IMG/VR virus record: IMGVR_UViG_3300036784_000179 | Span: 1-59,390 of that record | Source: a virus | Taxonomy: Duplodnaviria > Caudoviricetes | Length of the DNA: 59,390 bases | Direction: 5' to 3' (one strand) | Made by a program: the position numbers and the translations under genes | Shown: positions 1,290 through 37,841 of the stretch, in pieces | How the letters are laid out: each line of letters starts with the position of its first letter | Position numbering within the stretch: position 1 is the stretch's first letter | Notes under the pieces: generated by a model | What the model was told of the DNA's origin: nothing | Database searches by the model: none | Seen by the model: only the letters and a program-made list of their open reading frames with translations

Positions 1290-1547
1290 ATGGCAGTCCC
1301 CCCGGAATTTACCGCCGAGGTGATCTTTGAGCAGGCGACGCGGTTAAAAAGCGCGCTCGCCGGCGCCGGTCTCTCGCCCGAGCTCTGCGCCACCCTCTTT
1401 GGTGCGGCTTACCTGCTGTCACTGCACTACCTATCTGACAAAACACGCGCCGCGGAGCTCGCCGAGTGTATGGACATGCTGGTCGACACCTGGATCGAGG
1501 CCGCCTCGCCCCCAGCAAATACGGACGGCGATGACAGCCCCCGATGA
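1290..1547 (+). CDS. Hypothetical protein
   Basis: 85-aa ORF, first of the rightward operon. Confidence 0.6.
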   Translation: MAVPPEFTAEVIFEQATRLKSALAGAGLSPELCATLFGAAYLLSLHYLSDKTRAAELAECMDMLVDTWIEAASPPANTDGDDSPR

Positions 1548-1752
1548 ACTCTCGGGCCGCCCTCTAGGGCTGGTCAGCGACGCCGATGTCGACACCATTG
1601 CGACCCGAGGCGATATCATGGCCGCGGTTCTCGCACTGGGAAACGCCATCGAACGGCTCGAGCGCGCACAATATCGGCTGATGGCGATGATCATCGGCCT
1701 CGCCATCAGCCTGATGGCACTGGCGGTGCTGTTGGGCCTGATCATGCGCTAA
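1531..1752 (+). CDS. Small coiled-coil protein with C-terminal TM helix (paralogue of 7105-7272)
   Basis: ATRGDI...ERLERA..RL followed by hydrophobic helix; start chosen at MTAPDE. Confidence 0.65.
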   Translation: MTAPDELSGRPLGLVSDADVDTIATRGDIMAAVLALGNAIERLERAQYRLMAMIIGLAISLMALAVLLGLIMR

Positions 1753-1770
1753 ACCACCGGGAGACCGCTC

Positions 1771-2064
1771 GTGAGCGAATTTGAAACCTTTCAAGCCTAT
1801 TTCCGCGAGCAAGCCGCCGACGAGCATCACCCCAGTGCCGGTGCCTTTGCGCTGGCTTATGCGGTGATGCGTCTGTCGCAGTCATTGGACGGACTGTCCA
1901 CGAGCTTTGCCCCAGAGGGGCTCGGCACCTTTAACGTCGATTATTTTCTGGTGCGTGTGGCCCGCCGGCTCGACGAGCTGTCCAAACAAATCGGTAGTCT
2001 CGACCCCCCCGAGGCCGCCGAATTGCTGCGCCGCCGGCCGGCGGGAAAGGGGCAGCGCAAATAA
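1771..2064 (+). CDS. Hypothetical protein
   Basis: 97-aa ORF, GGGAG RBS before GTG. Confidence 0.65.
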   Translation: MSEFETFQAYFREQAADEHHPSAGAFALAYAVMRLSQSLDGLSTSFAPEGLGTFNVDYFLVRVARRLDELSKQIGSLDPPEAAELLRRRPAGKGQRK

Positions 2065-2074
2065 GGAGGTTGAA

Positions 2075-2467
2075 GTGGCCGTACATTCCCCCCAAATTTG
2101 GACGGTCGAGGAGATCGCCGCGCGCTACAAATACACCACCCGGCACATCTTTGAGTTGATCCGCCGCCACAAATTGCCGGTGCTCGGCACGAAAACGCAG
2201 ATCCGCTTTGACGAGACCGCGGTCGCCGCTTTGGAGGAAGCCATTCGATGCCCCTCACCATCGTCCGACGACGAAATCGGGCCGGAGCCCTCACGATCTC
2301 GGGGTCGGTCGACGGGCAGCGGGTACAACGCCGTGCTGGATCGAATGACCCAAAGGTTGCAGCAAAAGAAGCCGCCCTCCTCGAAGCCGAGCTCCTCAAC
2401 CAACGATACCACGGCAAACGTCGTGGGGTTTGGAGTTTCGCGTTTGCCGCAGAACAGTACGAGCTAG
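2075..2467 (+). CDS. xis: Excisionase-like HTH protein overlapping the integrase 5' end
   Basis: AAGGAGG RBS before GTG 2075; WTVEEIAARYKYTTRHIFELIRRHKLP..G...IRF is an HTH_17/MerR-like xis signature; directly upstream of int. Confidence 0.8.
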   Translation: MAVHSPQIWTVEEIAARYKYTTRHIFELIRRHKLPVLGTKTQIRFDETAVAALEEAIRCPSPSSDDEIGPEPSRSRGRSTGSGYNAVLDRMTQRLQQKKPPSSKPSSSTNDTTANVVGFGVSRLPQNSTS

Positions 2468-3336
2468 CCACCGCACCGAGCAGTGCCACGGTCAAGCGGT
2501 TGGCCCGCTTGATCACGGCCGTCGGCGACACCCCGTTGCGCGAGATGACCCAAGAGACCTTGAACCGGTTGCAGCGCAAATTGTTGCGCCCCAACCCGGC
2601 ACCGGCGACGGTGTTGCGCGAGATCATCACCCCGGTGCGCGCGGTGGTCAATTATGCGGTCGAGCAGGGTGAGGCCGACCCGATCCGCTTGCGCTCGCCG
2701 CGGGTTCCCAAAGGCCGCACGCTCTATTTGTTGCCGCACGAGGCCCAGCGTCTGGTCGCTGCCGCCGCCCCGCATCTCAAACCCTTGTTGGTCTTTCTGT
2801 TGGGCACCGGGGCCAGGCTCAGCGAAGCGCTCGAGCTCGACTGGCGCGATGTCGGATTGAGCGAGGGCCGGGTCAGTCTACGCAAGACCAAAAACGGCCG
2901 GGAACGGCATGCCCATCTGCCGCCCCATGCGGTCGCCACCCTGGCCAATCTTAAAGACCGCGAGGGGCCGGTGTTTTGCTGGACCCGGCGCCGCGGCGGT
3001 GGCGAGTTGAGGCGCGCTTACGCCGCCGCGGCGCGGGCCGAGCGCGATGGCGGCGGCCAAATCAAACGCGCCTTTCAAGGTGCGGTGCGGCGCTCGGGGC
3101 TCGCTATTCCGGGGCTCAGCCCGCATGTATTGCGGCACACCTGGGCGAGCTGGCACTACGCGACCTACAAGGACCTGTTGCGATTGCAGATCGAGGGCAA
3201 TTGGTCGTCGATCAACCTCGTCGTGCGCTACGCTCATCTGTTGCCCGAGGGTCAAGAGGCGGCGATCGCGGCGTTTTGGAGCCATGGCAGCGAACGAGGT
3301 GACGAAACCCCGGTCGAGCGCCGGCAGACAGCCTGA
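2248..3336 (+). CDS. int: Tyrosine integrase
   Basis: TGARLSEAL (catalytic R), KTKNG, HVLRHTWASW (HxxR), GNWSS...VRYAH (catalytic Y); adjacent tRNA-derived attP. Confidence 0.95.
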   Translation: MPLTIVRRRNRAGALTISGSVDGQRVQRRAGSNDPKVAAKEAALLEAELLNQRYHGKRRGVWSFAFAAEQYELATAPSSATVKRLARLITAVGDTPLREMTQETLNRLQRKLLRPNPAPATVLREIITPVRAVVNYAVEQGEADPIRLRSPRVPKGRTLYLLPHEAQRLVAAAAPHLKPLLVFLLGTGARLSEALELDWRDVGLSEGRVSLRKTKNGRERHAHLPPHAVATLANLKDREGPVFCWTRRRGGGELRRAYAAAARAERDGGGQIKRAFQGAVRRSGLAIPGLSPHVLRHTWASWHYATYKDLLRLQIEGNWSSINLVVRYAHLLPEGQEAAIAAFWSHGSERGDETPVERRQTA

Positions 3337-3349
3337 TCGGGAGAACCCG

Positions 3350-3634
3350 ATGATCGACGATGATTTGCGGGAATTATTCCCCGAAGCCGAACAGGCGGGC
3401 GACAAGGTCCTGCAAGCGCTCAGAACAGGCAAAATTCACGCCTGGAAAGACGGCAAGCAGCTCTCGAAGCGTTTTTGGCGCGGCAAGGATCTGGCCGACC
3501 TGATGCGCAGCGGATGTAGCTTTAAACCGTCCGAAGTGATCGCGGCGTTTCCGCCGTCGGTGCGGCCGGGGCAACCGGTGGCGGCGCAGTTTGGCACAAA
3601 ATCCGTCCGTATCGTGCGGGGCGGCGGTGCGTGA
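3350..3634 (+). CDS. Hypothetical protein (cassette 1), 94 aa
   Basis: ATG and GGGAG RBS supplied by repeat copy 1; stop overlaps the start of repeat copy 2. Confidence 0.7.
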   Translation: MIDDDLRELFPEAEQAGDKVLQALRTGKIHAWKDGKQLSKRFWRGKDLADLMRSGCSFKPSEVIAAFPPSVRPGQPVAAQFGTKSVRIVRGGGA

Positions 3635-3681
3635 GGAAACCCCGGCCGAGCGCCGGCAGATGGCCTGATCGGGAGGAACAA

Positions 3682-3927
3682 ATGAAGTCGTATCCCAAGA
3701 AGCAGCTTCAGCCTGGTGACAAGGAGGCGCCGCTCAGTGGCACGCCGTTGAGCGAGTGGCCGATCCTCAAGCGGGCGCAGATCGCCGAGCTCAATTACCG
3801 CAATATTCGCACCGTCGAGGACCTCGCCGACTTGTCTGATCTGGCGGTGCAAAACCTCGGCCTCGGCGGCCAGATACTGCGAGCCCGCGCGTGCGCCTAT
3901 CTCGGCAGGCCTTGGCCACCAAATTGA
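3682..3927 (+). CDS. Truncated copy of an internal domain of late gene 34028-34801 (cassette 2), 81 aa
   Basis: KEAPLSGTPLSEWPILKRAQIAELNYRNIRTVEDL..LSDLAVQNLG shared; GGAGG RBS from repeat copy 2. Confidence 0.8.
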   Translation: MKSYPKKQLQPGDKEAPLSGTPLSEWPILKRAQIAELNYRNIRTVEDLADLSDLAVQNLGLGGQILRARACAYLGRPWPPN

Positions 3928-3938
3928 CTGGCGAAAAC
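3720..3938 (+). repeat. Long dispersed inverted repeat with 34340-34571
   Basis: 6 mismatches over the first 185 nt, then a net 13-nt deletion, then ~30 nt more identity. Confidence 0.95.
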
Positions 3939-3990
3939 CCGTGACGAGACCCCGGCCGAGCGCCGGCAGACAGCCTGATAGGAGGAACCG

Positions 3991-4161
3991 ATGATCGAAT
4001 GGTTGATGGTGGTGTATTTGATGGACACCCACGAGCCGACCGGCACCCGCCACGTCTTTCCCGACCAAGAGGCGTGCGAGAGCGCGCGGAAATACTGGCA
4101 AGACTGGCAAGCCCAGACGTCTGGAACCTACGCGATCTGCAAGCCTGTGACCAGACTGTGA
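3991..4161 (+). CDS. Small protein with hydrophobic N-terminus and two Cys (cassette 3), 56 aa, absent from the ORF track
   Basis: AGGAGG RBS; MIEWLMVVYLMDTHEPTGTRHVFPDQEACESARKYWQDWQAQTSGTYAICKPVTRL*. Confidence 0.75.
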   Translation: MIEWLMVVYLMDTHEPTGTRHVFPDQEACESARKYWQDWQAQTSGTYAICKPVTRL

Positions 4162-4166
4162 CCAGG
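4145..4166 (+). repeat. Putative integrase arm-type sites (left arm), 2 x 11 bp
   Basis: CTGTGACCAGA CTGTGACCAGG about 60 nt left of the att core. Confidence 0.75.
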
Positions 4167-4223
4167 CCCCGCCCGAAAGCCCCAAGCGCCTGATATTGCG
4201 TGCTAAAAACCACTAGGTTCGGG

Positions 4224-4271
4224 CCCTTGGTAAGGGAGAGGTCGTAGGTTCGATACCCACCGGCAGCACCA
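4224..4271 (+). tRNA. 3' half of tRNA-Thr(GGT) serving as attP core (not a full tRNA)
   Basis: CCCT-TGGTAA-GGGAG anticodon arm, AGGTC variable loop, GGTTCGA T-loop, acceptor strand CGGCAGC-A-CCA; no D-arm or 5' acceptor strand upstream. Confidence 0.9.
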
Positions 4272-4378
4272 GCCTAACCCCTCGAAAAATCGCAGGTTCT
4301 TCAAGATCTTAGACCATCCCGCCAACGACCGAGAGAAGCCTCGCTCGACAGATCAAAACGGCAACATACCGCCAAACC

Positions 4379-4411
4379 CCGTGACCATCCTGTGACCACG
4401 CTGTGACCGCT
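4379..4411 (+). repeat. Putative integrase arm-type sites (right arm), 3 x 11 bp
   Basis: CCGTGACCATC CTGTGACCACG CTGTGACCGCT, same motif as the left arm. Confidence 0.75.
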
Positions 4412-4480
4412 ACGGCAGGGCGGGCGAGTCCCCCGCCGCGTCTGTTCTTTAGTTGTTCTCATCCTCAGGGAGTGATCAAA

Positions 4481-5233
4481 ATGGAGTTTGATCCGCGCGA
4501 GATCATCGAGGGTGTGCCGATCCGCCGGGTGCGGGATTGCCTGACCGCCGGCCAGATCGGCGAATTTGACGCGGTCTACCTGCAAGCTTGGCTCGGGCTA
4601 AAGAGCAAGATCGCGGCCCAGCGCTGGGCGATCGCCGCCATGCAGCGCGGACTGATCGAGCCGGGCCACCGCCCCAAGGAGTGGCGGGTCGCCAGCCTTG
4701 GCAAGAGCCTGGCCAACGCGCGATTTCTACCGCGCCTCAACCGCGCCAAAGCCGAGCGGCTGATCAGCGAGCTCGTCGAGCGGATCCGGCTCAGCGCGAT
4801 CAATTGCGCGCGCGAAGGTTACATCGAGGAGGTCGCCGCCGTCGCGCTCTTTGGCAGCTGCTATGCTCTCGACGAGGCCGACAATTTTGGCGATGTCGAT
4901 GTGCTCTTGGCTTGTCGAAGGCTCGCCGAATTCGCCGACCACAAAAGGTTCGTCGCCCATTGCCAGGCTCTGTTTGATCACGACGGCCGCACCAGCCGCA
5001 ACATCGCCGATGAATATGCCTGGCCGTCCCTAAAGTTGCGCCGCGCGCTCAAGGCCCGCAACCCCTACATCTCGCTGCACAATGTGGAGACCGAAGAGCT
5101 GACCAAGGATCTCGACCGCGTCCGCATCGTCTATTTGTTGCCCGATGGCGTGCTGACCGATCCCTGGCGCTGTACGGGACAAGAGTTTCTTGGCTTGCTC
5201 AAGGTCTCTCTGGGGATTGACGTGTTCTACTAA
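4481..5233 (+). CDS. Nucleotidyltransferase-fold protein (pol-beta/MNT-like) with probable N-terminal winged helix
   Basis: VALFGS...FGDVDVLL motif (GS + DxD); GGGAG RBS before ATG 4481. Confidence 0.7.
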   Translation: MEFDPREIIEGVPIRRVRDCLTAGQIGEFDAVYLQAWLGLKSKIAAQRWAIAAMQRGLIEPGHRPKEWRVASLGKSLANARFLPRLNRAKAERLISELVERIRLSAINCAREGYIEEVAAVALFGSCYALDEADNFGDVDVLLACRRLAEFADHKRFVAHCQALFDHDGRTSRNIADEYAWPSLKLRRALKARNPYISLHNVETEELTKDLDRVRIVYLLPDGVLTDPWRCTGQEFLGLLKVSLGIDVFY

Positions 5234-5270
5234 TCCCGCAGATCACCCCGGCGCCACCATGATCGAGAAA

Positions 5271-5295
5271 GGCCGCGCCCCCGCGAGGCGCGGCC
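5271..5295. terminator. Hairpin between convergent genes
   Basis: GGCCGCGCC-N7-GGCGCGGCC; TTTCT follows on the minus strand. Confidence 0.5.
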
Positions 5296-5404
5296 CGGGA
5301 ACGTGCTTTTTAGGGGCGCCGGCGGCGCCCGCTGCGCCGCTCACGCGCCGAAGTGCCTACCGGGACCGGAGGCTCGGGCTCCGGCGGTGACCCCGGAGGC
5401 TCGG

Positions 5405-6079
5405 CTAAGGGGCCGGCTTAGGCTCCGGCACACCGCTCGGCGGCGGCTTGAGCGGATCTTCGATCAGAAACCAACAATCGCCATACCCAACGACGTTGAC
5501 GTAGATCAAAGCCTTGTTCCCCGTCGACGGCTGGTCTGGCGGCAGGTAGATCGGATGCGAAGGGGTCAGGCCATTGCCCGGCGGGGGTATCTCCTCACCA
5601 GGTGGAATGACGATCGGGTGCGCCGGCCCGCCGCCGGGGGCGATCGGGTGTGCGGGATATCCGGGTGACGGCCAGATTTCCACGGGCGGCAACACGATAG
5701 GGTGCGCCGGAACCCCCGGTGCAATCGCATCGGGCGGCAGCACGATCGGGTGCGCCGGATGCCCGGGTGACGGCCAAATTTCCGGCGGCAGATAGATTGG
5801 ATGCGCAGGTACGCCCGGAGCAATTGCCCCGGGCGGTATCACAATGGGATGCGCCGGAAAGACCGGCAGGTAAATCGGGTGCGCCGGTACGCCCGGGGCA
5901 ATTGCGTCGGGCGGTATTACAATGGGGTGCGCCGGCCCGCCGCCGGGGGCGATCGGGTGTGCGGGATGCCCGGGTGACGGCCAGATTTCCACGGGCGGCC
6001 CGCCCGGCATTGGACCGCCGCCGACCTCCAGACCCGTGTAAGTCATTGTCCCGATAATGGTTACCGGAATAGATGCCAT
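5405..6079 (-). CDS. Proline-rich PAHPI-repeat protein
   Basis: Ten P(A/S)HPIxxP repeats; AAGGA RBS. Confidence 0.85.
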   Translation of the reverse strand: MASIPVTIIGTMTYTGLEVGGGPMPGGPPVEIWPSPGHPAHPIAPGGGPAHPIVIPPDAIAPGVPAHPIYLPVFPAHPIVIPPGAIAPGVPAHPIYLPPEIWPSPGHPAHPIVLPPDAIAPGVPAHPIVLPPVEIWPSPGYPAHPIAPGGGPAHPIVIPPGEEIPPPGNGLTPSHPIYLPPDQPSTGNKALIYVNVVGYGDCWFLIEDPLKPPPSGVPEPKPAP

Positions 6080-6388
6080 TATTTCGTTTCCTTTTCACTG
6101 GGAAAGCGCGAGGCCCCTCGCGCGGAGTACTCCCAACCCAGGCACCCACAGGGGCCTGCAGGTGCCGCCCTACCCTCTGCCAGACGGGGACCCCCGCCGG
6201 GCATACCTCGGGTTCCAAAGAAATTTGGGAAAAACGTTGATCTTGCCGGTCGTGGTTTGGCTGGCGATGCGGGGCGCTGTCGTCCTGGTGACGCGCTAGA
6301 CAACCGCCGGCGAAATGGCGTAACCCAGGGTCAACGCGATCCTCGCGCGTGCATCCCTCGGTTACAACCGTTTCAAAGGCACACCCTG

Positions 6389-7066
6389 ATGAAAACCCCC
6401 CTCCTCGCCGGTGCCGCCGCAATCGGATTGCTCGCCGCCCCCACGGCACAGGCCGACCTGGCCTTGACCGTCAGCGACAACGGCGTACCAATCGCCGGTT
6501 GCGCCACCACCACCCCCTCACCGCTCTCGATCACCTGCTCAAATGCCAATTTTAGCGCAATCCAGGTTGTCTCGCAGGGTGTCCCGACCCTGCCTTCGCC
6601 CGATCTCGGGACGATCTCGATCTCGGCGACCGCCGGCCCATTGGCCGCCGCGCACGACCTCGATTTGAGGATTGTGCAGACCGGGCTCAGCGACTTTCCG
6701 GGCGGCCCATCATCGACCACCTTTGCGCAAAATTCGCTAATCGGCATTCCCGGGCCGGCGAGCTATCACATGATCTTTGACGGAGTCGACATCGCCGACG
6801 CGATCTTGCCGCGGAGCCTCGACCCGCAGACCGCCGGCCCGTTCCTGGTCAACCTCGCGGCGGTCTCAAGCGCCTTTACCGACAGCCAAGAGATCATCGC
6901 GACCTTTGGCCCGTCGCTGCAGACCCAGCAATTGCAGTCGAACGCGCAGTTTCAGGTCATCTCACCCGCGCCCGAGCCGACCTCGCTCGCACTTCTGGGG
7001 GCGGCACTCCTCGGCATGGGTTGGCTGACCCGGCGGCGCCGAGGTGCCGATCAAGCATCGTGGTGA
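6389..7066 (+). CDS. PEP-CTERM sorting-signal surface protein
   Basis: Signal peptide MKTPLLAGAAAIGLLAAPTAQA; C-terminal APEPTSLALLGAALLGMGWLTRRRR. Confidence 0.92.
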   Translation: MKTPLLAGAAAIGLLAAPTAQADLALTVSDNGVPIAGCATTTPSPLSITCSNANFSAIQVVSQGVPTLPSPDLGTISISATAGPLAAAHDLDLRIVQTGLSDFPGGPSSTTFAQNSLIGIPGPASYHMIFDGVDIADAILPRSLDPQTAGPFLVNLAAVSSAFTDSQEIIATFGPSLQTQQLQSNAQFQVISPAPEPTSLALLGAALLGMGWLTRRRRGADQASW

Positions 7067-33752: not shown

Positions 33753-34028
33753 TTAACCCTGCTGCCCGCCGATCGCCACCCACTGACCATTGCGCCGGGC
33801 ATAGACCCGGCCATCCTGCGGTGCCTCGTCGATCCCGGCTTGCCGCACCTCCGGCTCGCCCGGCTGCTGTTCCGTGGTCGCCGGACCGCTGACGACGGCG
33901 ACCGCCAACGGATTGGCGGTGGTCGGCGGGTACCAGCCCTGGACATTGGGCGGCGGTCCGGCGACCTGGACCACCGGCACCGGATTGTTTAGCGACCAGG
34001 GTCCGCCCACAACACTGCGCCCGCTCAT
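33753..34028 (-). CDS. Small protein with C-terminal foldon-like motif
   Basis: PPNVQGWYPP and GIDEAPQDGRVYARRNGQWVAI shared with the end of 23737-25446. Confidence 0.75.
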   Translation of the reverse strand: MSGRSVVGGPWSLNNPVPVVQVAGPPPNVQGWYPPTTANPLAVAVVSGPATTEQQPGEPEVRQAGIDEAPQDGRVYARRNGQWVAIGGQQG

Positions 34029-34801
34029 CAGCAGGCCTCCTGGCCAAGCTGGAGCGGTGCGCCATCCTCGACCCGCGGCATGCGCAATTCGCGCGGCGGT
34101 GCCATCGCGGCAAACTCGTCGAGTGCCGAGACCACCGGGGCGCCGACGGTGAGCGCTCCCGAAAAGTTCGCCGCCGTCGCCGCCTTGGCGATCTCGACCG
34201 GGTCGTGCAACGCCGGGATATAGGCTGGTAGCTGCGTCTGCTGGCGTTGATACTCGACCGCGCGGGTCATCTGCAAGAGCTGCTGGCCGAGTGCGTCGAC
34301 CTGGTTTTCCAGGGTCGAGATGCGCAGCCGCAAGGCGTCGTTCTCGCCAGTCAATTTGGTGGCCAAGGCCTCGCGCTCGGCCTCGTCGAGATAGGCGCGC
34401 GCGCGGGCTCGCAGCATCTGGCCGCCCATGCCGAGGTTTTGCACCGCCAGATCAGACAAGTCGCCGAGGTCCTCGACGGTGCGGATATTGCGGTAATTGA
34501 GCTCGGCGATCTGCGCCCGCTTGAGGATCGGCCACTCGCTCAACGGCGTGCCACTGAGCGGCGCCTCCTTGCCGGCCTTAAACGCGGCGTAAAGCTCGGG
34601 CCAGCGCTCGGCATGCCCCTCGTTGACCCGCTCGACCAGGATCGTGCCCGAGCCGGGGATAAAGATTTTGACAAAATCAACATCGCGAAAGATGTCGCGC
34701 CCGGCCTTGACCGAGGCAAAACCGTCGCGCTCGGCGTCGGTGTAAAATTCGGCGCGGGTCTGCCGCGCCGGCCCGTCATAGCTTCGGCTATAGCCCAGCA
34801 T
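34028..34801 (-). CDS. Late-region protein with HhH-like domain and coiled coil
   Basis: GAGGAG RBS; FVKI.IPG...RWP..YAAFK.G....GTPL.EWP...I.TVE.L..LSD. Confidence 0.8.
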   Translation of the reverse strand: MLGYSRSYDGPARQTRAEFYTDAERDGFASVKAGRDIFRDVDFVKIFIPGSGTILVERVNEGHAERWPELYAAFKAGKEAPLSGTPLSEWPILKRAQIAELNYRNIRTVEDLGDLSDLAVQNLGMGGQMLRARARAYLDEAEREALATKLTGENDALRLRISTLENQVDALGQQLLQMTRAVEYQRQQTQLPAYIPALHDPVEIAKAATAANFSGALTVGAPVVSALDEFAAMAPPRELRMPRVEDGAPLQLGQEAC

Positions 34802-36809: not shown

Positions 36810-37841
36810 CTAGTTGATCAGCACGCCTTGCAAAAACGCGTTAGACATGGTCATGTTGCCGGCCCATCCGACAAGTTTGACCATCGCGTCTTGATTGACG
36901 GTAAATCGGTCAGGATTGAGCGGCGTCATGTTGCGCTCGCGATGTGGTCTTAGAAATATATAATCTGTATTCAGAAAATACATATGGTTTGACGGCGCAC
37001 CCGATAAGGTTGCCCAGGTGATGCCGCCACCAATCGGCCCCCCGGTGCCACCCGCGACCCCCTGAAAACCACCATCGAATACGACATCGGCATCCATGAA
37101 TTTGAGCGACTGAAAACCAGCAACACCCTCGCCTGGGCTAGTAATACGTTGTATAGCTTGCAATGACTCCCAATAAAATGTAAAGTAGGCGTTATCAGCG
37201 ATAATTAAATCTGGTCGATCTGTACCACGCACTTGGTTGAGCCATTGCCTATTCATCATGGTTTGCATCGTGGCAGTACCTGCGGTGAGCCCGGCCGCAG
37301 TAAACGAACCAATATAGGCGCGCCAGAACGGCCACAGTCCGCGATCGATACCGCCGACCACTCCCGAGGTCTCGACATCGGCGACCAGCAACTGCAGACC
37401 GCCGATCTGCTTGCCGCCGTCGAGCGTGCCATTGCCGTAGCAGTCGCCCGAGATGCCGTTGGTCATCGTCCGTTCGGCGTTGCCGATGCGGCTTTCGAGC
37501 AGGTCGATCATGCGCTCGACCCCGCTGTTCTGCAATTCCTCGAGACCGCTGATCGAGACCGCCACCGCAGCCTGCGCCCACGGGTATTGAGCCGCAGTAA
37601 ACACATCGGAGGGTGAAAGATTGAGGACGTCGTATCCTGAATATCTCTTGTAAGTGCCGTTCTCCGAGTATTCGAGCTCTTGGACAATTGCTTGCCCACC
37701 GTCGACCGGCTTGACTTTGTTGCGCTGGCTGAGACGGGCGAGGATTGCGTTGTTTTTGGTGACGTTGTCGGCGAGCTTGCGCGACCGGCTAAACAAGGTG
37801 GTGGTCGTGATTTCACCCCAGTTTGGATTTGGCGAGGGCAT
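36810..37841 (-). CDS. Major capsid protein
   Basis: 343 aa after scaffold; TTT...R...LADNV...NA.L..L...GG..I...LEY..N....YSGYD.L...YFLNT.YI...GN.T.SN...QG.L. Confidence 0.92.
   Translation of the reverse strand: MPSPNPNWGEITTTTLFSRSRKLADNVTKNNAILARLSQRNKVKPVDGGQAIVQELEYSENGTYKRYSGYDVLNLSPSDVFTAAQYPWAQAAVAVSISGLEELQNSGVERMIDLLESRIGNAERTMTNGISGDCYGNGTLDGGKQIGGLQLLVADVETSGVVGGIDRGLWPFWRAYIGSFTAAGLTAGTATMQTMMNRQWLNQVRGTDRPDLIIADNAYFTFYWESLQAIQRITSPGEGVAGFQSLKFMDADVVFDGGFQGVAGGTGGPIGGGITWATLSGAPSNHMYFLNTDYIFLRPHRERNMTPLNPDRFTVNQDAMVKLVGWAGNMTMSNAFLQGVLIN

Follow-up and report, generated by a model that had tools for sequence, protein, structure and literature searches.

A small accessory-gene array headed by repeated copies of the integrase gene end, between int and attP of a virus record from soil metagenomes

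We analyzed a 59,390-nt virus record (IMG/VR record IMGVR_UViG_3300036784_000179; Duplodnaviria, Caudoviricetes), which is labelled "linear" and has a CheckV completeness of 99%; the whole record is called the window here. Between its tyrosine integrase gene (int) and the phage attachment site (attP) lie three small open reading frames (ORF1 to ORF3), each headed by a copy of the end of int followed by a Shine-Dalgarno (SD) sequence and a start codon. This structure is a small accessory-gene array, a variant of the known att-proximal cargo of phages, and it is unusual in that its units reiterate a surrogate integrase tail. It is a single example, from soil metagenomes, and it is not an integron. 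The array is real, and the explanation that we prefer for it, with about even confidence, is that it accreted inside the int tail by repeated duplicating recombination that was not site specific.

A repeat search returned one family of three 55-nt direct repeats on the plus strand, at 3299 to 3353 (copy 1), 3631 to 3685 (copy 2), and 3941 to 3995 (copy 3), spaced by 332 and 310 nt. Relative to copy 1, copy 2 is 85% and copy 3 is 80% identical. A 30-nt pattern of the repeat core, allowing up to 3 mismatches, matched three places in the 59,390 nt, all in the array, and 100 shuffles gave no match. When the 5′ and 3′ halves of the repeat were searched separately, neither was found elsewhere in the window; the 3′-half search missed copy 3 because that copy has a 1-nt deletion. 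In copy 1, which forms the present int tail, the final 12 codons of int (GDETPVERRQTA) and the stop codon TGA are followed by 13 nt that include GGGAG and by the ATG of ORF1 at 3350. Copies 2 and 3 are noncoding copies of the same tail, joined to the SD sequence and ATG of ORF2 (3682) and of ORF3 (3991), respectively. The edges of the repeats are sharp, with unrelated sequence flanking them on both sides.

The three ORFs, all on the plus strand, lack similarity to one another. ORF1 (3350..3634; 94 amino acids [aa]) ends in the GTGA of copy 2, ORF2 (3682..3927; 81 aa) ends 14 nt before copy 3, and ORF3 (3991..4161; 56 aa) ends in the second arm-type site of attP. Their GC content by codon position is gene-like (0.71 to 0.79 at third positions [GC3] and 0.46 to 0.48 at second positions [GC2]; 0.64/0.48/0.71 at the three positions of ORF1), and that of the long antisense ORF is not. 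An earlier reading of the window, made from the sequence only (the sequence-only reading), had described three ~55-bp direct repeats arrayed between int and attP, units of ~310 to 330 bp in which an unrelated small ORF ends at or near the next repeat, and a start codon supplied to each ORF by its repeat. The repeat search, the shuffles, the match of the attP core to tRNA-Thr (below), and the three ATG positions bear this out. The same reading took the repeat to be the 3′ end of int with a stop codon, ribosome-binding site, and ATG; this stands for the composition of copy 1, and the tail itself needs to be redescribed as a probable surrogate, given that the tail typical of the integrase family appears to survive as a relic farther downstream. 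As a separate observation, the GTGA of copy 2 (3631 to 3634) holds both the ORF1 stop codon TGA and an in-frame GTG of an extended ORF2 (3631..3927; 98 aa), and in copy 3 a 17-codon frame from the GTG at 3941 stops in the ATGA that starts ORF3 (3991 to 3994). These stop/start overlaps resemble those used in translational coupling.

The record is a metagenome assembly, and the array might on that account be an assembly artefact or a chimera, which we consider extremely unlikely. The window was compared with assembled Logan contigs. Run X1, possibly the source sample, has contigs over 2000 to 3749 and 3832 to 5200, and run X2, which carries another sample and study code, has contigs over 2000 to 3166 and 3143 to 3749, all with 0 differences. 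Contigs of both runs cross the first two repeat copies as well as the left-hand junction of a piece of DNA copied into ORF2 (below), and X1 contigs also cross the right-hand junction of that piece and copy 3. The left two units (int, copy 1, ORF1, copy 2, and the junction into the ORF2 body) are thus supported by two runs and the remainder by one. Runs X3 and X4 contribute small shares only. No X2 contig was listed on ~3939 to 4241, where both flanks are covered with 0 differences, and nothing is drawn from this gap. In keeping with an artefact, the Logan contigs break inside the ORF2 body, at the place where it is identical to its source gene. Against one, the repeats are only 80 to 90% alike and would not collapse or be misjoined, X1 and X2 contigs cross the repeat and copy junctions without a difference, the contigs of the source gene show the expected 13-nt difference, and contig depth is even (~11 to 12 on the array and ~10 on the source gene).

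The array lies within an integration module of the lambda type, in which attP is intact. The product of int (2248..3336, plus strand; 362 aa) matches PF00589 (E = 5.3 × 10−20) and the phrog_1 integrase profile (9.3 × 10−41), has 485 relatives at E ≤ 1 × 10−20, and retains the catalytic columns R190, H293, R296, and Y328, which are invariant in a 30-sequence alignment; the module therefore has the catalytic domain of a tyrosine recombinase. Its attP core (4224 to 4271, plus strand) corresponds to tRNA-Thr(GGT) from its anticodon loop through CCA, and thus to the 3′ part of the gene, as expected for a lambda-type core. The core is 89.6% identical to the tRNA-Thr of phage CcrBL9 and 87.8% identical to the "core sequence for lysogenization" of Rhizobium phage phiU, and ARAGORN found no whole tRNA gene in the window. 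Candidate arm-type sites lie on both sides of the core: two on the left in the P arm (CTGTGACCA; 4145 to 4153 and 4156 to 4164) and three on the right in the P′ arm (C(C/T)GTGACC; 4379 to 4410), all on the plus strand, in direct orientation, and with an 11-nt period. Outside the arms, C(C/T)GTGACC occurs twice more in the window, once per strand. The repeated sites flanking the core fit the lambda-type pattern, with a putative role in binding Int. A consensus scan of the plus strand from 1500 to 5500 found no sigma-70-like promoter (the consensus is that of sigma-70 and may not be that of the host), nor did it find a terminator in or between the array units. ORF1 to ORF3 are probably cotranscribed with int and the xis-like gene that overlaps its start.

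The left arm sites also point to where int may once have ended. The frame that runs through them (4145..4193, plus strand) reads CDQTVTRPRPKAPSA and reaches a stop codon at 4191 to 4193, 31 nt before the start of the core, and in three integrase relatives (L054, L071, and L075) int stops 29, 40, and 41 nt before a tRNA-Thr-like core (core start minus stop). Ranked against 107 tails of the integrase family, the peptide came 5th among 1,449 ORF ends. From this rank and from the geometry, we read the frame as a relic of the original int tail. Among the relatives, the int-tail words of L054 and L075 are arm-type sites that recur in the P′ arm, 8 of the 107 family tails read [CG]D..VT, which is the coding of two GTGAC sites 11 nt apart, and in 13 of the 61 relatives with downstream DNA a 14- to 26-nt word of the final 70 nt of int reappears 44 to 300 nt downstream. 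The P-arm Int-binding sites of this family would thus normally lie within the last ~15 int codons, ~30 to 40 nt from the core. The peptide encoded by copy 1 is itself a family-like tail (compare ..ERRINA and ..ENRATA). The repeat is best described as a likely surrogate int tail, and the family-typical tail, with its P-arm sites, appears to persist as a relic beside the core. Because the relic tail adjoins the core and the surrogate tail (copy 1) ends int, the array would sit inside the former int tail. Moreover, because the P-arm sites lie in the int tail, cargo placed between int and attP would need a second tail to close the int frame. A fourth, degenerate copy of the repeat at the P arm was considered and rejected, since DNA similarity there was not above background and the tail profile missed it.

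The origin of one unit can be traced within the window. ORF2 joins a new 13-aa head to the truncated middle of a phrog_20268 protein and a frameshifted end. It matches phrog_20268 at 9.6 × 10−11 over profile positions 87 to 150 of 227, and in tblastn it is 93% identical over 61 aa to positions 34570 to 34388. By local alignment, the DNA at 3720..3938 (plus strand) is a ~96% identical copy of 34571..34340 (minus strand); the alignment has blocks of 185, 2, and 32 nt, the first with 6 substitutions and the last with 1, and 13 nt are missing. The copied piece is in frame with the ATG borrowed from the repeat and is flanked by GTGAC at 3716 and 3941. At least one unit therefore holds a captured fragment, as the sequence-only reading had supposed of them all. 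The source gene (34028..34801, minus strand; 257 aa; phrog_20268 at 1 × 10−26) stands two genes downstream of the major head protein gene (36810..37841), which is on the minus strand of the window along with the terminase and portal genes. Homologues of the source protein are ~195 to 210 aa long, and in Mx8 and a Bradyrhizobium phage their genes come after those of the capsid. Since these are the lengths of the homologues and ORF2 matches an internal part, ORF2 is a truncated middle piece of the source protein, and it has no relatives near its own length because the relatives are longer proteins. A PDB sequence search with the source-gene product gave best matches only at E > 0.3, and a single-sequence structure model of it was poor (predicted local distance difference test [pLDDT], 48.9) and was not used.

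Four of the five codons changed between ORF2 and its source are nonsynonymous, and the end of ORF2 is frameshifted. From its sequence, the ORF2 unit would express, or would once have expressed, a truncated virion-module protein. The differences are unevenly spread: over its first 87 nt the copied piece does not differ from the source (34340 to 34571), and all differences fall in the last 130 nt. This clustering could reflect gene conversion between copy and source, or the donor could have been a related phage. A diversity-generating retroelement or a retro-copy was also considered for the ORF2-source pair. At the six differences in the 185-nt block, the source reads C, G, A, G, G, and C and the copy reads T, C, C, C, A, and T, and no match to the reverse transcriptase family PF00078 was found in the record. 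The idea was rejected because there is no reverse transcriptase and the mismatches are not adenine specific.

ORF3 is a genuine, complete small phage protein, given a homologue elsewhere and a confidently predicted fold. It is 41% identical over 54 aa to a protein (P0127) encoded in another IMG/VR contig (L096), and AlphaFold predicts a beta-beta-alpha-beta structure (pLDDT, 86.4; predicted template modeling score, 0.67). The fold resembles that of many uncharacterized phage proteins of 50 to 70 aa, none at E ≤ 0.001, and a Foldseek search against the PDB returned nothing at that threshold. Matches of ORF3 to P0124, P0125, P0126, and P0128 were dropped; P0125 and P0128 are low-complexity repeat proteins. 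Near P0127, the ORF list of L096 and the six ORFs within 4 kb that were scanned with Pfam held no integrase. Similarity between the two SD regions is confined to GGAG(G/A)AAC, which is too generic to place the start of the module. Downstream of the ORF3 homologue, at 4220 to 4410 of L096, a ~30-nt string (..CTTATTTTTATAGCCTCGAAAAACCCGATCCC..) and a ~45-nt string each occur twice within 200 nt, forming local direct repeats.

ORF1 is an orphan. No relatives were found by a homologous-protein search, by tblastn on phages, or in metagenome contigs and viral contigs, and its best score in the protein atlas (0.80) is at chance level. A 323-nt contig of soil run X3 matches 3355 to 3630 with 11 differences (~96% identity); of the seven differences listed, five are at third codon positions and the others are conservative. 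The match corresponds to the ORF1 body between copies 1 and 2, and the X3 contig continues 47 nt upstream of it with sequence unlike that of the window. PADLOC and NCBIfam gave no match for any of the three ORFs.

The borders of the array coincide with a short motif, GTGA(C/G), which is the core of the arm-type sites. On the plus strand between 1500 and 5500, GTGAC occurs only at 3299, 3716, and 3941, in the five arm sites, and at 5387; on the minus strand of the same interval it does not occur. Position 3299 is the start of copy 1 and the exact end of the int homology with L008, the nearest relative (below). The GTGAC at 3716 forms the left edge of the copied piece, and that at 3941 starts copy 3, 2 nt past the right edge of the piece. 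Copy 2 (3631) begins with GTGAG, and the homology of the ORF3 module with P0127 ends at the first P-arm site (4147). Genome-wide, GTGAC occurs ~1 per 940 nt per strand (63 times on the plus strand), so that the coincidence at 3716 amounts to ~1 in 100, judged post hoc. A link between GTGA(C/G) at the repeat starts and the arm-site motif had already been proposed from the sequence, and it has become stronger with the end of the int homology, position 3716, and the right edge of ORF3.

Integrase relatives were searched for a comparable array. The nearest, L008, has an Int that is 77% identical and shares xis, int, and the core, the 48 nt of which are identical. At the same place it carries 1.15 kb of different cargo with no copy of ORF1 to ORF3, after which come arm sites of its own (GGTGACGAG) and the core. 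The L008 record contains neither a second copy of its cargo nor a homologue of the source gene, which is uninformative in a partial record (46% complete). We rejected the idea that int of L008 ends in this surrogate tail too, because in alignment the homology ends at the first base of copy 1. L008 has exact tandem duplications at 6068 to 6092 (11 nt twice, overlapping the int stop) and 6666 to 6697 (15 nt twice), directly upstream of the ATGs of cargo ORFs that both begin ATGAGT; these, too, suggest that duplicating events have taken place at gene starts between int and attP. No match of at least 30 nt to the int end was found downstream of int in any of 61 relatives, and no direct repeat of at least 25 nt involving the int end in any of 55. 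Two degenerate repeat patterns had no matches in IMG/VR and JGI metagenome contigs. A looser 20-nt pattern matched five loci (L091 to L095), all of them chance matches without flanking similarity.

Taken together, these observations can be arranged as follows. The host element would be a temperate phage that integrates at tRNA-Thr, and the array would have grown in the 3′ tail of its int gene. The relic tail, with the two arm sites of a putative working P arm, would stay at the core, and the surrogate tail (copy 1) would close int. As extra DNA was inserted, two more copies of the surrogate tail with SD sequence and ATG would be made, for example by unequal or short-homology exchange or by template switching during replication. 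The need to keep the arm sites beside the core would constrain the insertion site, and insertions probably occurred at a GTGAC motif like that of the arm sites. Any piece landing behind a repeat copy would inherit its ribosome-binding site and start codon. Such a process may take up heterogeneous pieces, here a complete small phage gene (ORF3), a decaying copy of the phage's own gene (ORF2), and an orphan coding piece (ORF1).

Several results weigh against this account. ORF2 looks relaxed rather than conserved or selected. The main fact that simple illegitimate recombination leaves unexplained is the presence of GTGA(C/G) at all junctions (3299, 3631, 3716, 3941, and 4147). The rank of the relic peptide owes much to the CDxxVT words, whose coding sequence is that of the arm sites; a profile built from the whole set of family tails fails to detect the relic; and the presumed relic of L008 ranked 55th of 308 in the same test, which is not significant. 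At the DNA level, the similarity of copy 3 to the P-arm and relic sequence is at background, with a local score of 26 and best scores of 29 to 32 among 2,945 other tiles. Finally, none of the relatives shows an intermediate state, and the order of events is unsupported.

The sequence-only reading had explained the array as integron-like capture. In a version of this idea without IntI or attC, the GTGAC in the int tail would be a preferred insertion point, at which bound Int or the pairing of arm sites brings in DNA, including pieces of the phage's own genes; each insertion would duplicate tail, SD sequence, and ATG so that the newcomer is expressed, and units could be lost or exchanged at the repeats. 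Every junction does fall on GTGA(C/G) in a single orientation, and the own-gene piece lies between the GTGACs at 3716 and 3941. The sequence just left of 3716 (AGCCTGGTGAC) is similar to that of the first P-arm site and its flank (AAGCCTGTGAC), copies 1 and 3 begin with GGTGACGA and CGTGACGAG, matching the L008 arm site, and the X3 similarity to the ORF1 body starts at 3355, 2 nt past copy 1, with the contig ending at 3630, the last base before copy 2. Known lambda-type integrases, however, bind arm sites and do not cut them, and no part of the repeats resembles the core, the anticodon stem-loop. One "cassette" is a decaying fragment rather than a gene, and with repeat copies that differ by 10 to 15% and an ORF2 copy that differs by ~4%, no recent turnover is visible. 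No second example was found either, in IMG/VR or JGI contigs or among the 55 to 61 relatives. The earlier reading had named a lack of the repeats in relatives as grounds for giving it up, and this lack is what the comparison found; the test is a weak one, because Int identity to even the closest relative is no higher than 77%. We regard capture directed by arm sites and assisted by Int as rather unlikely.

A one-off complex rearrangement, such as serial template switching at a stalled fork, would instead leave the ORFs other than ORF3 as functionless by-products. Such an event fits an insertion templated from 30 kb away in inverted genomic orientation, the singleton status of the array, the relaxed changes and frameshift of ORF2, and the lack of a family for ORF1. 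We nevertheless think it unlikely, since copy 2 differs by ~15% from copies 1 and 3 and the ORF2 piece by only ~4% from its source, which points to different ages (the counts are small), since ORF1 has a ~96% identical relative elsewhere with changes that are mainly at third positions or conservative, and since all three ORFs have gene-like GC3 and fill their units. The repeat might also be a selected cis-acting leader, a translation or RNA-processing signal comparable to start-associated sequences (SAS) or an RNase III site, rather than the footprint of insertion. Each copy ends in an SD sequence and ATG, the GTGA yields the stop/start overlaps, and a 5-bp hairpin (CCGGC..GCCGG, with a G-U pair in copy 1) is kept in all three copies. 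Yet there are three copies only, at one locus, and their first 38 nt are simply int tail. Folding energies were no better than those of shuffled sequences (RNA z scores of −1.4, +1.7, and +0.8; single-stranded DNA of both strands, −1.2 to +0.7), and Rfam gave no match at E ≤ 1 over 3000 to 4700. A leader is thus highly unlikely as the explanation of the repeats. A regulatory RNA was rejected as the principal explanation, the Rfam search, the promoter and terminator scan, and the folds all being null.

Several known arrangements come close to the array, each with differences. Morons and other lysogenic-conversion cargo adjoin the attachment site of temperate phages. Like them, the array consists of extra genes at the int-attP end that are absent from L008, heterogeneous, and partly of unknown function. 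Unlike them, its units have no promoter or terminator of their own that the consensus scan detected, appear to lie inside the former int tail, each headed by tail, SD sequence, and ATG, and include one truncated copy of a gene of the phage's own structural module. Phages that use tRNA genes integrate into the 3′ end of the gene, and the element carries a replacement 3′ end. In a similar way, the end of int is duplicated here, the gene stays whole, and the displaced end would lie downstream as a relic; in this case, however, the phage would have interrupted int, a gene of its own, the duplicated end occurs three times over, and the displaced end would be kept because it holds the P-arm sites.

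Integrons are described as a set of intI, attI, Pc, and attC cassettes (PMC2791841). The array shares with them an ordered arrangement beside a tyrosine recombinase gene, unrelated units, a short boundary repeat, and expression signals provided by the platform. Its integrase is not of the IntI type, scoring 38.6 bits against a cutoff of 265 for TIGR02249 and 32.8 against 435 for NF011946, and the integron-integrase models match only part of the catalytic domain. As the sequence-only reading had stated, the repeats lack attC structure: the unit ends carry no attC-like imperfect inverted repeat that would fold into a single-strand hairpin, only the 5-bp hairpin, and no other significant fold. 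A further difference is that the repeat itself carries the start codon, and neither mobility nor a cassette pool was evident in the contigs searched. The proposed likeness to integron capture is therefore not supported by these features. In Cluster K mycobacteriophages, SAS and ESAS are described as a conserved short sequence directly upstream of the start codons of unrelated genes; SAS recur across these genomes, and 17-bp inverted repeats are present in half of them (PMC3203893). The array repeats likewise directly precede the start codons of unrelated genes, but there are just three of them, all at this locus, and integrase tail makes up two thirds of each. The attP of mycobacteriophage Pixie is described in the same source as having two arm-type sites on the left of the core and three on the right, all direct (PMC3203893). 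The arms here share this layout (2 + 3 direct sites with an 11-nt period, flanking a core derived from a tRNA gene), except that the left pair lies within sequence coding for the int tail in the window, as in compact relatives.

If P-arm sites reside in the int tail, cargo can be added at this end only by duplicating the tail, a design constraint that seems to have been little discussed. Any DNA that comes to lie behind a duplicated gene end with its ribosome site and start codon can become translatable, and in this array such DNA includes part of a virion-module gene in truncated copy. This is one concrete way in which new small phage proteins, dominant-negative fragments possibly among them, could originate. 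Should the GTGAC rule at the junctions reflect an active process, it would represent a new recombination activity linked to arm-type sites, and were the capture reading true, the array would be a phage-borne expression array acting like an integron.

Upstream of the array, a xis-like ORF (2075..2467, plus strand) with a candidate helix-turn-helix (HTH) motif overlaps the start of int, extending ~220 nt into the gene in a different frame. It matches HTH_17 (E = 2.9 × 10−4; 21.5 bits, below the 27-bit cutoff) and the excisionase/regulator family phrog_66 (2.2 × 10−4). Its counterpart in L008 (4828 to 5214) is 73% identical across 130 aa, and matches of 100 to 140 aa occur in many relatives. The long overlap could be real, or its conservation could be carried along by the N terminus of int. 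Beyond attP, the first ORF past the P′ arm (4478 to 5233, plus strand) had no Pfam or PHROG match and a weak PADLOC row (PDC-S09; E = 0.0067); it contains a GS...GDVDVLL stretch that we take to be reminiscent of minimal nucleotidyltransferases. It is followed by a gene rich in PAHPI(V/Y)(L/I)PP-type repeats (5405 to 6079, minus strand) and by one (6257 to 7066, plus strand) whose product ends with what is presumably a PEP-CTERM-like sorting signal (PEPTSLALLGAALLGMGWLTRRRR). The latter two are unusual cargo for a phage end, and L008 likewise has an ORF with a signal peptide past its attP.

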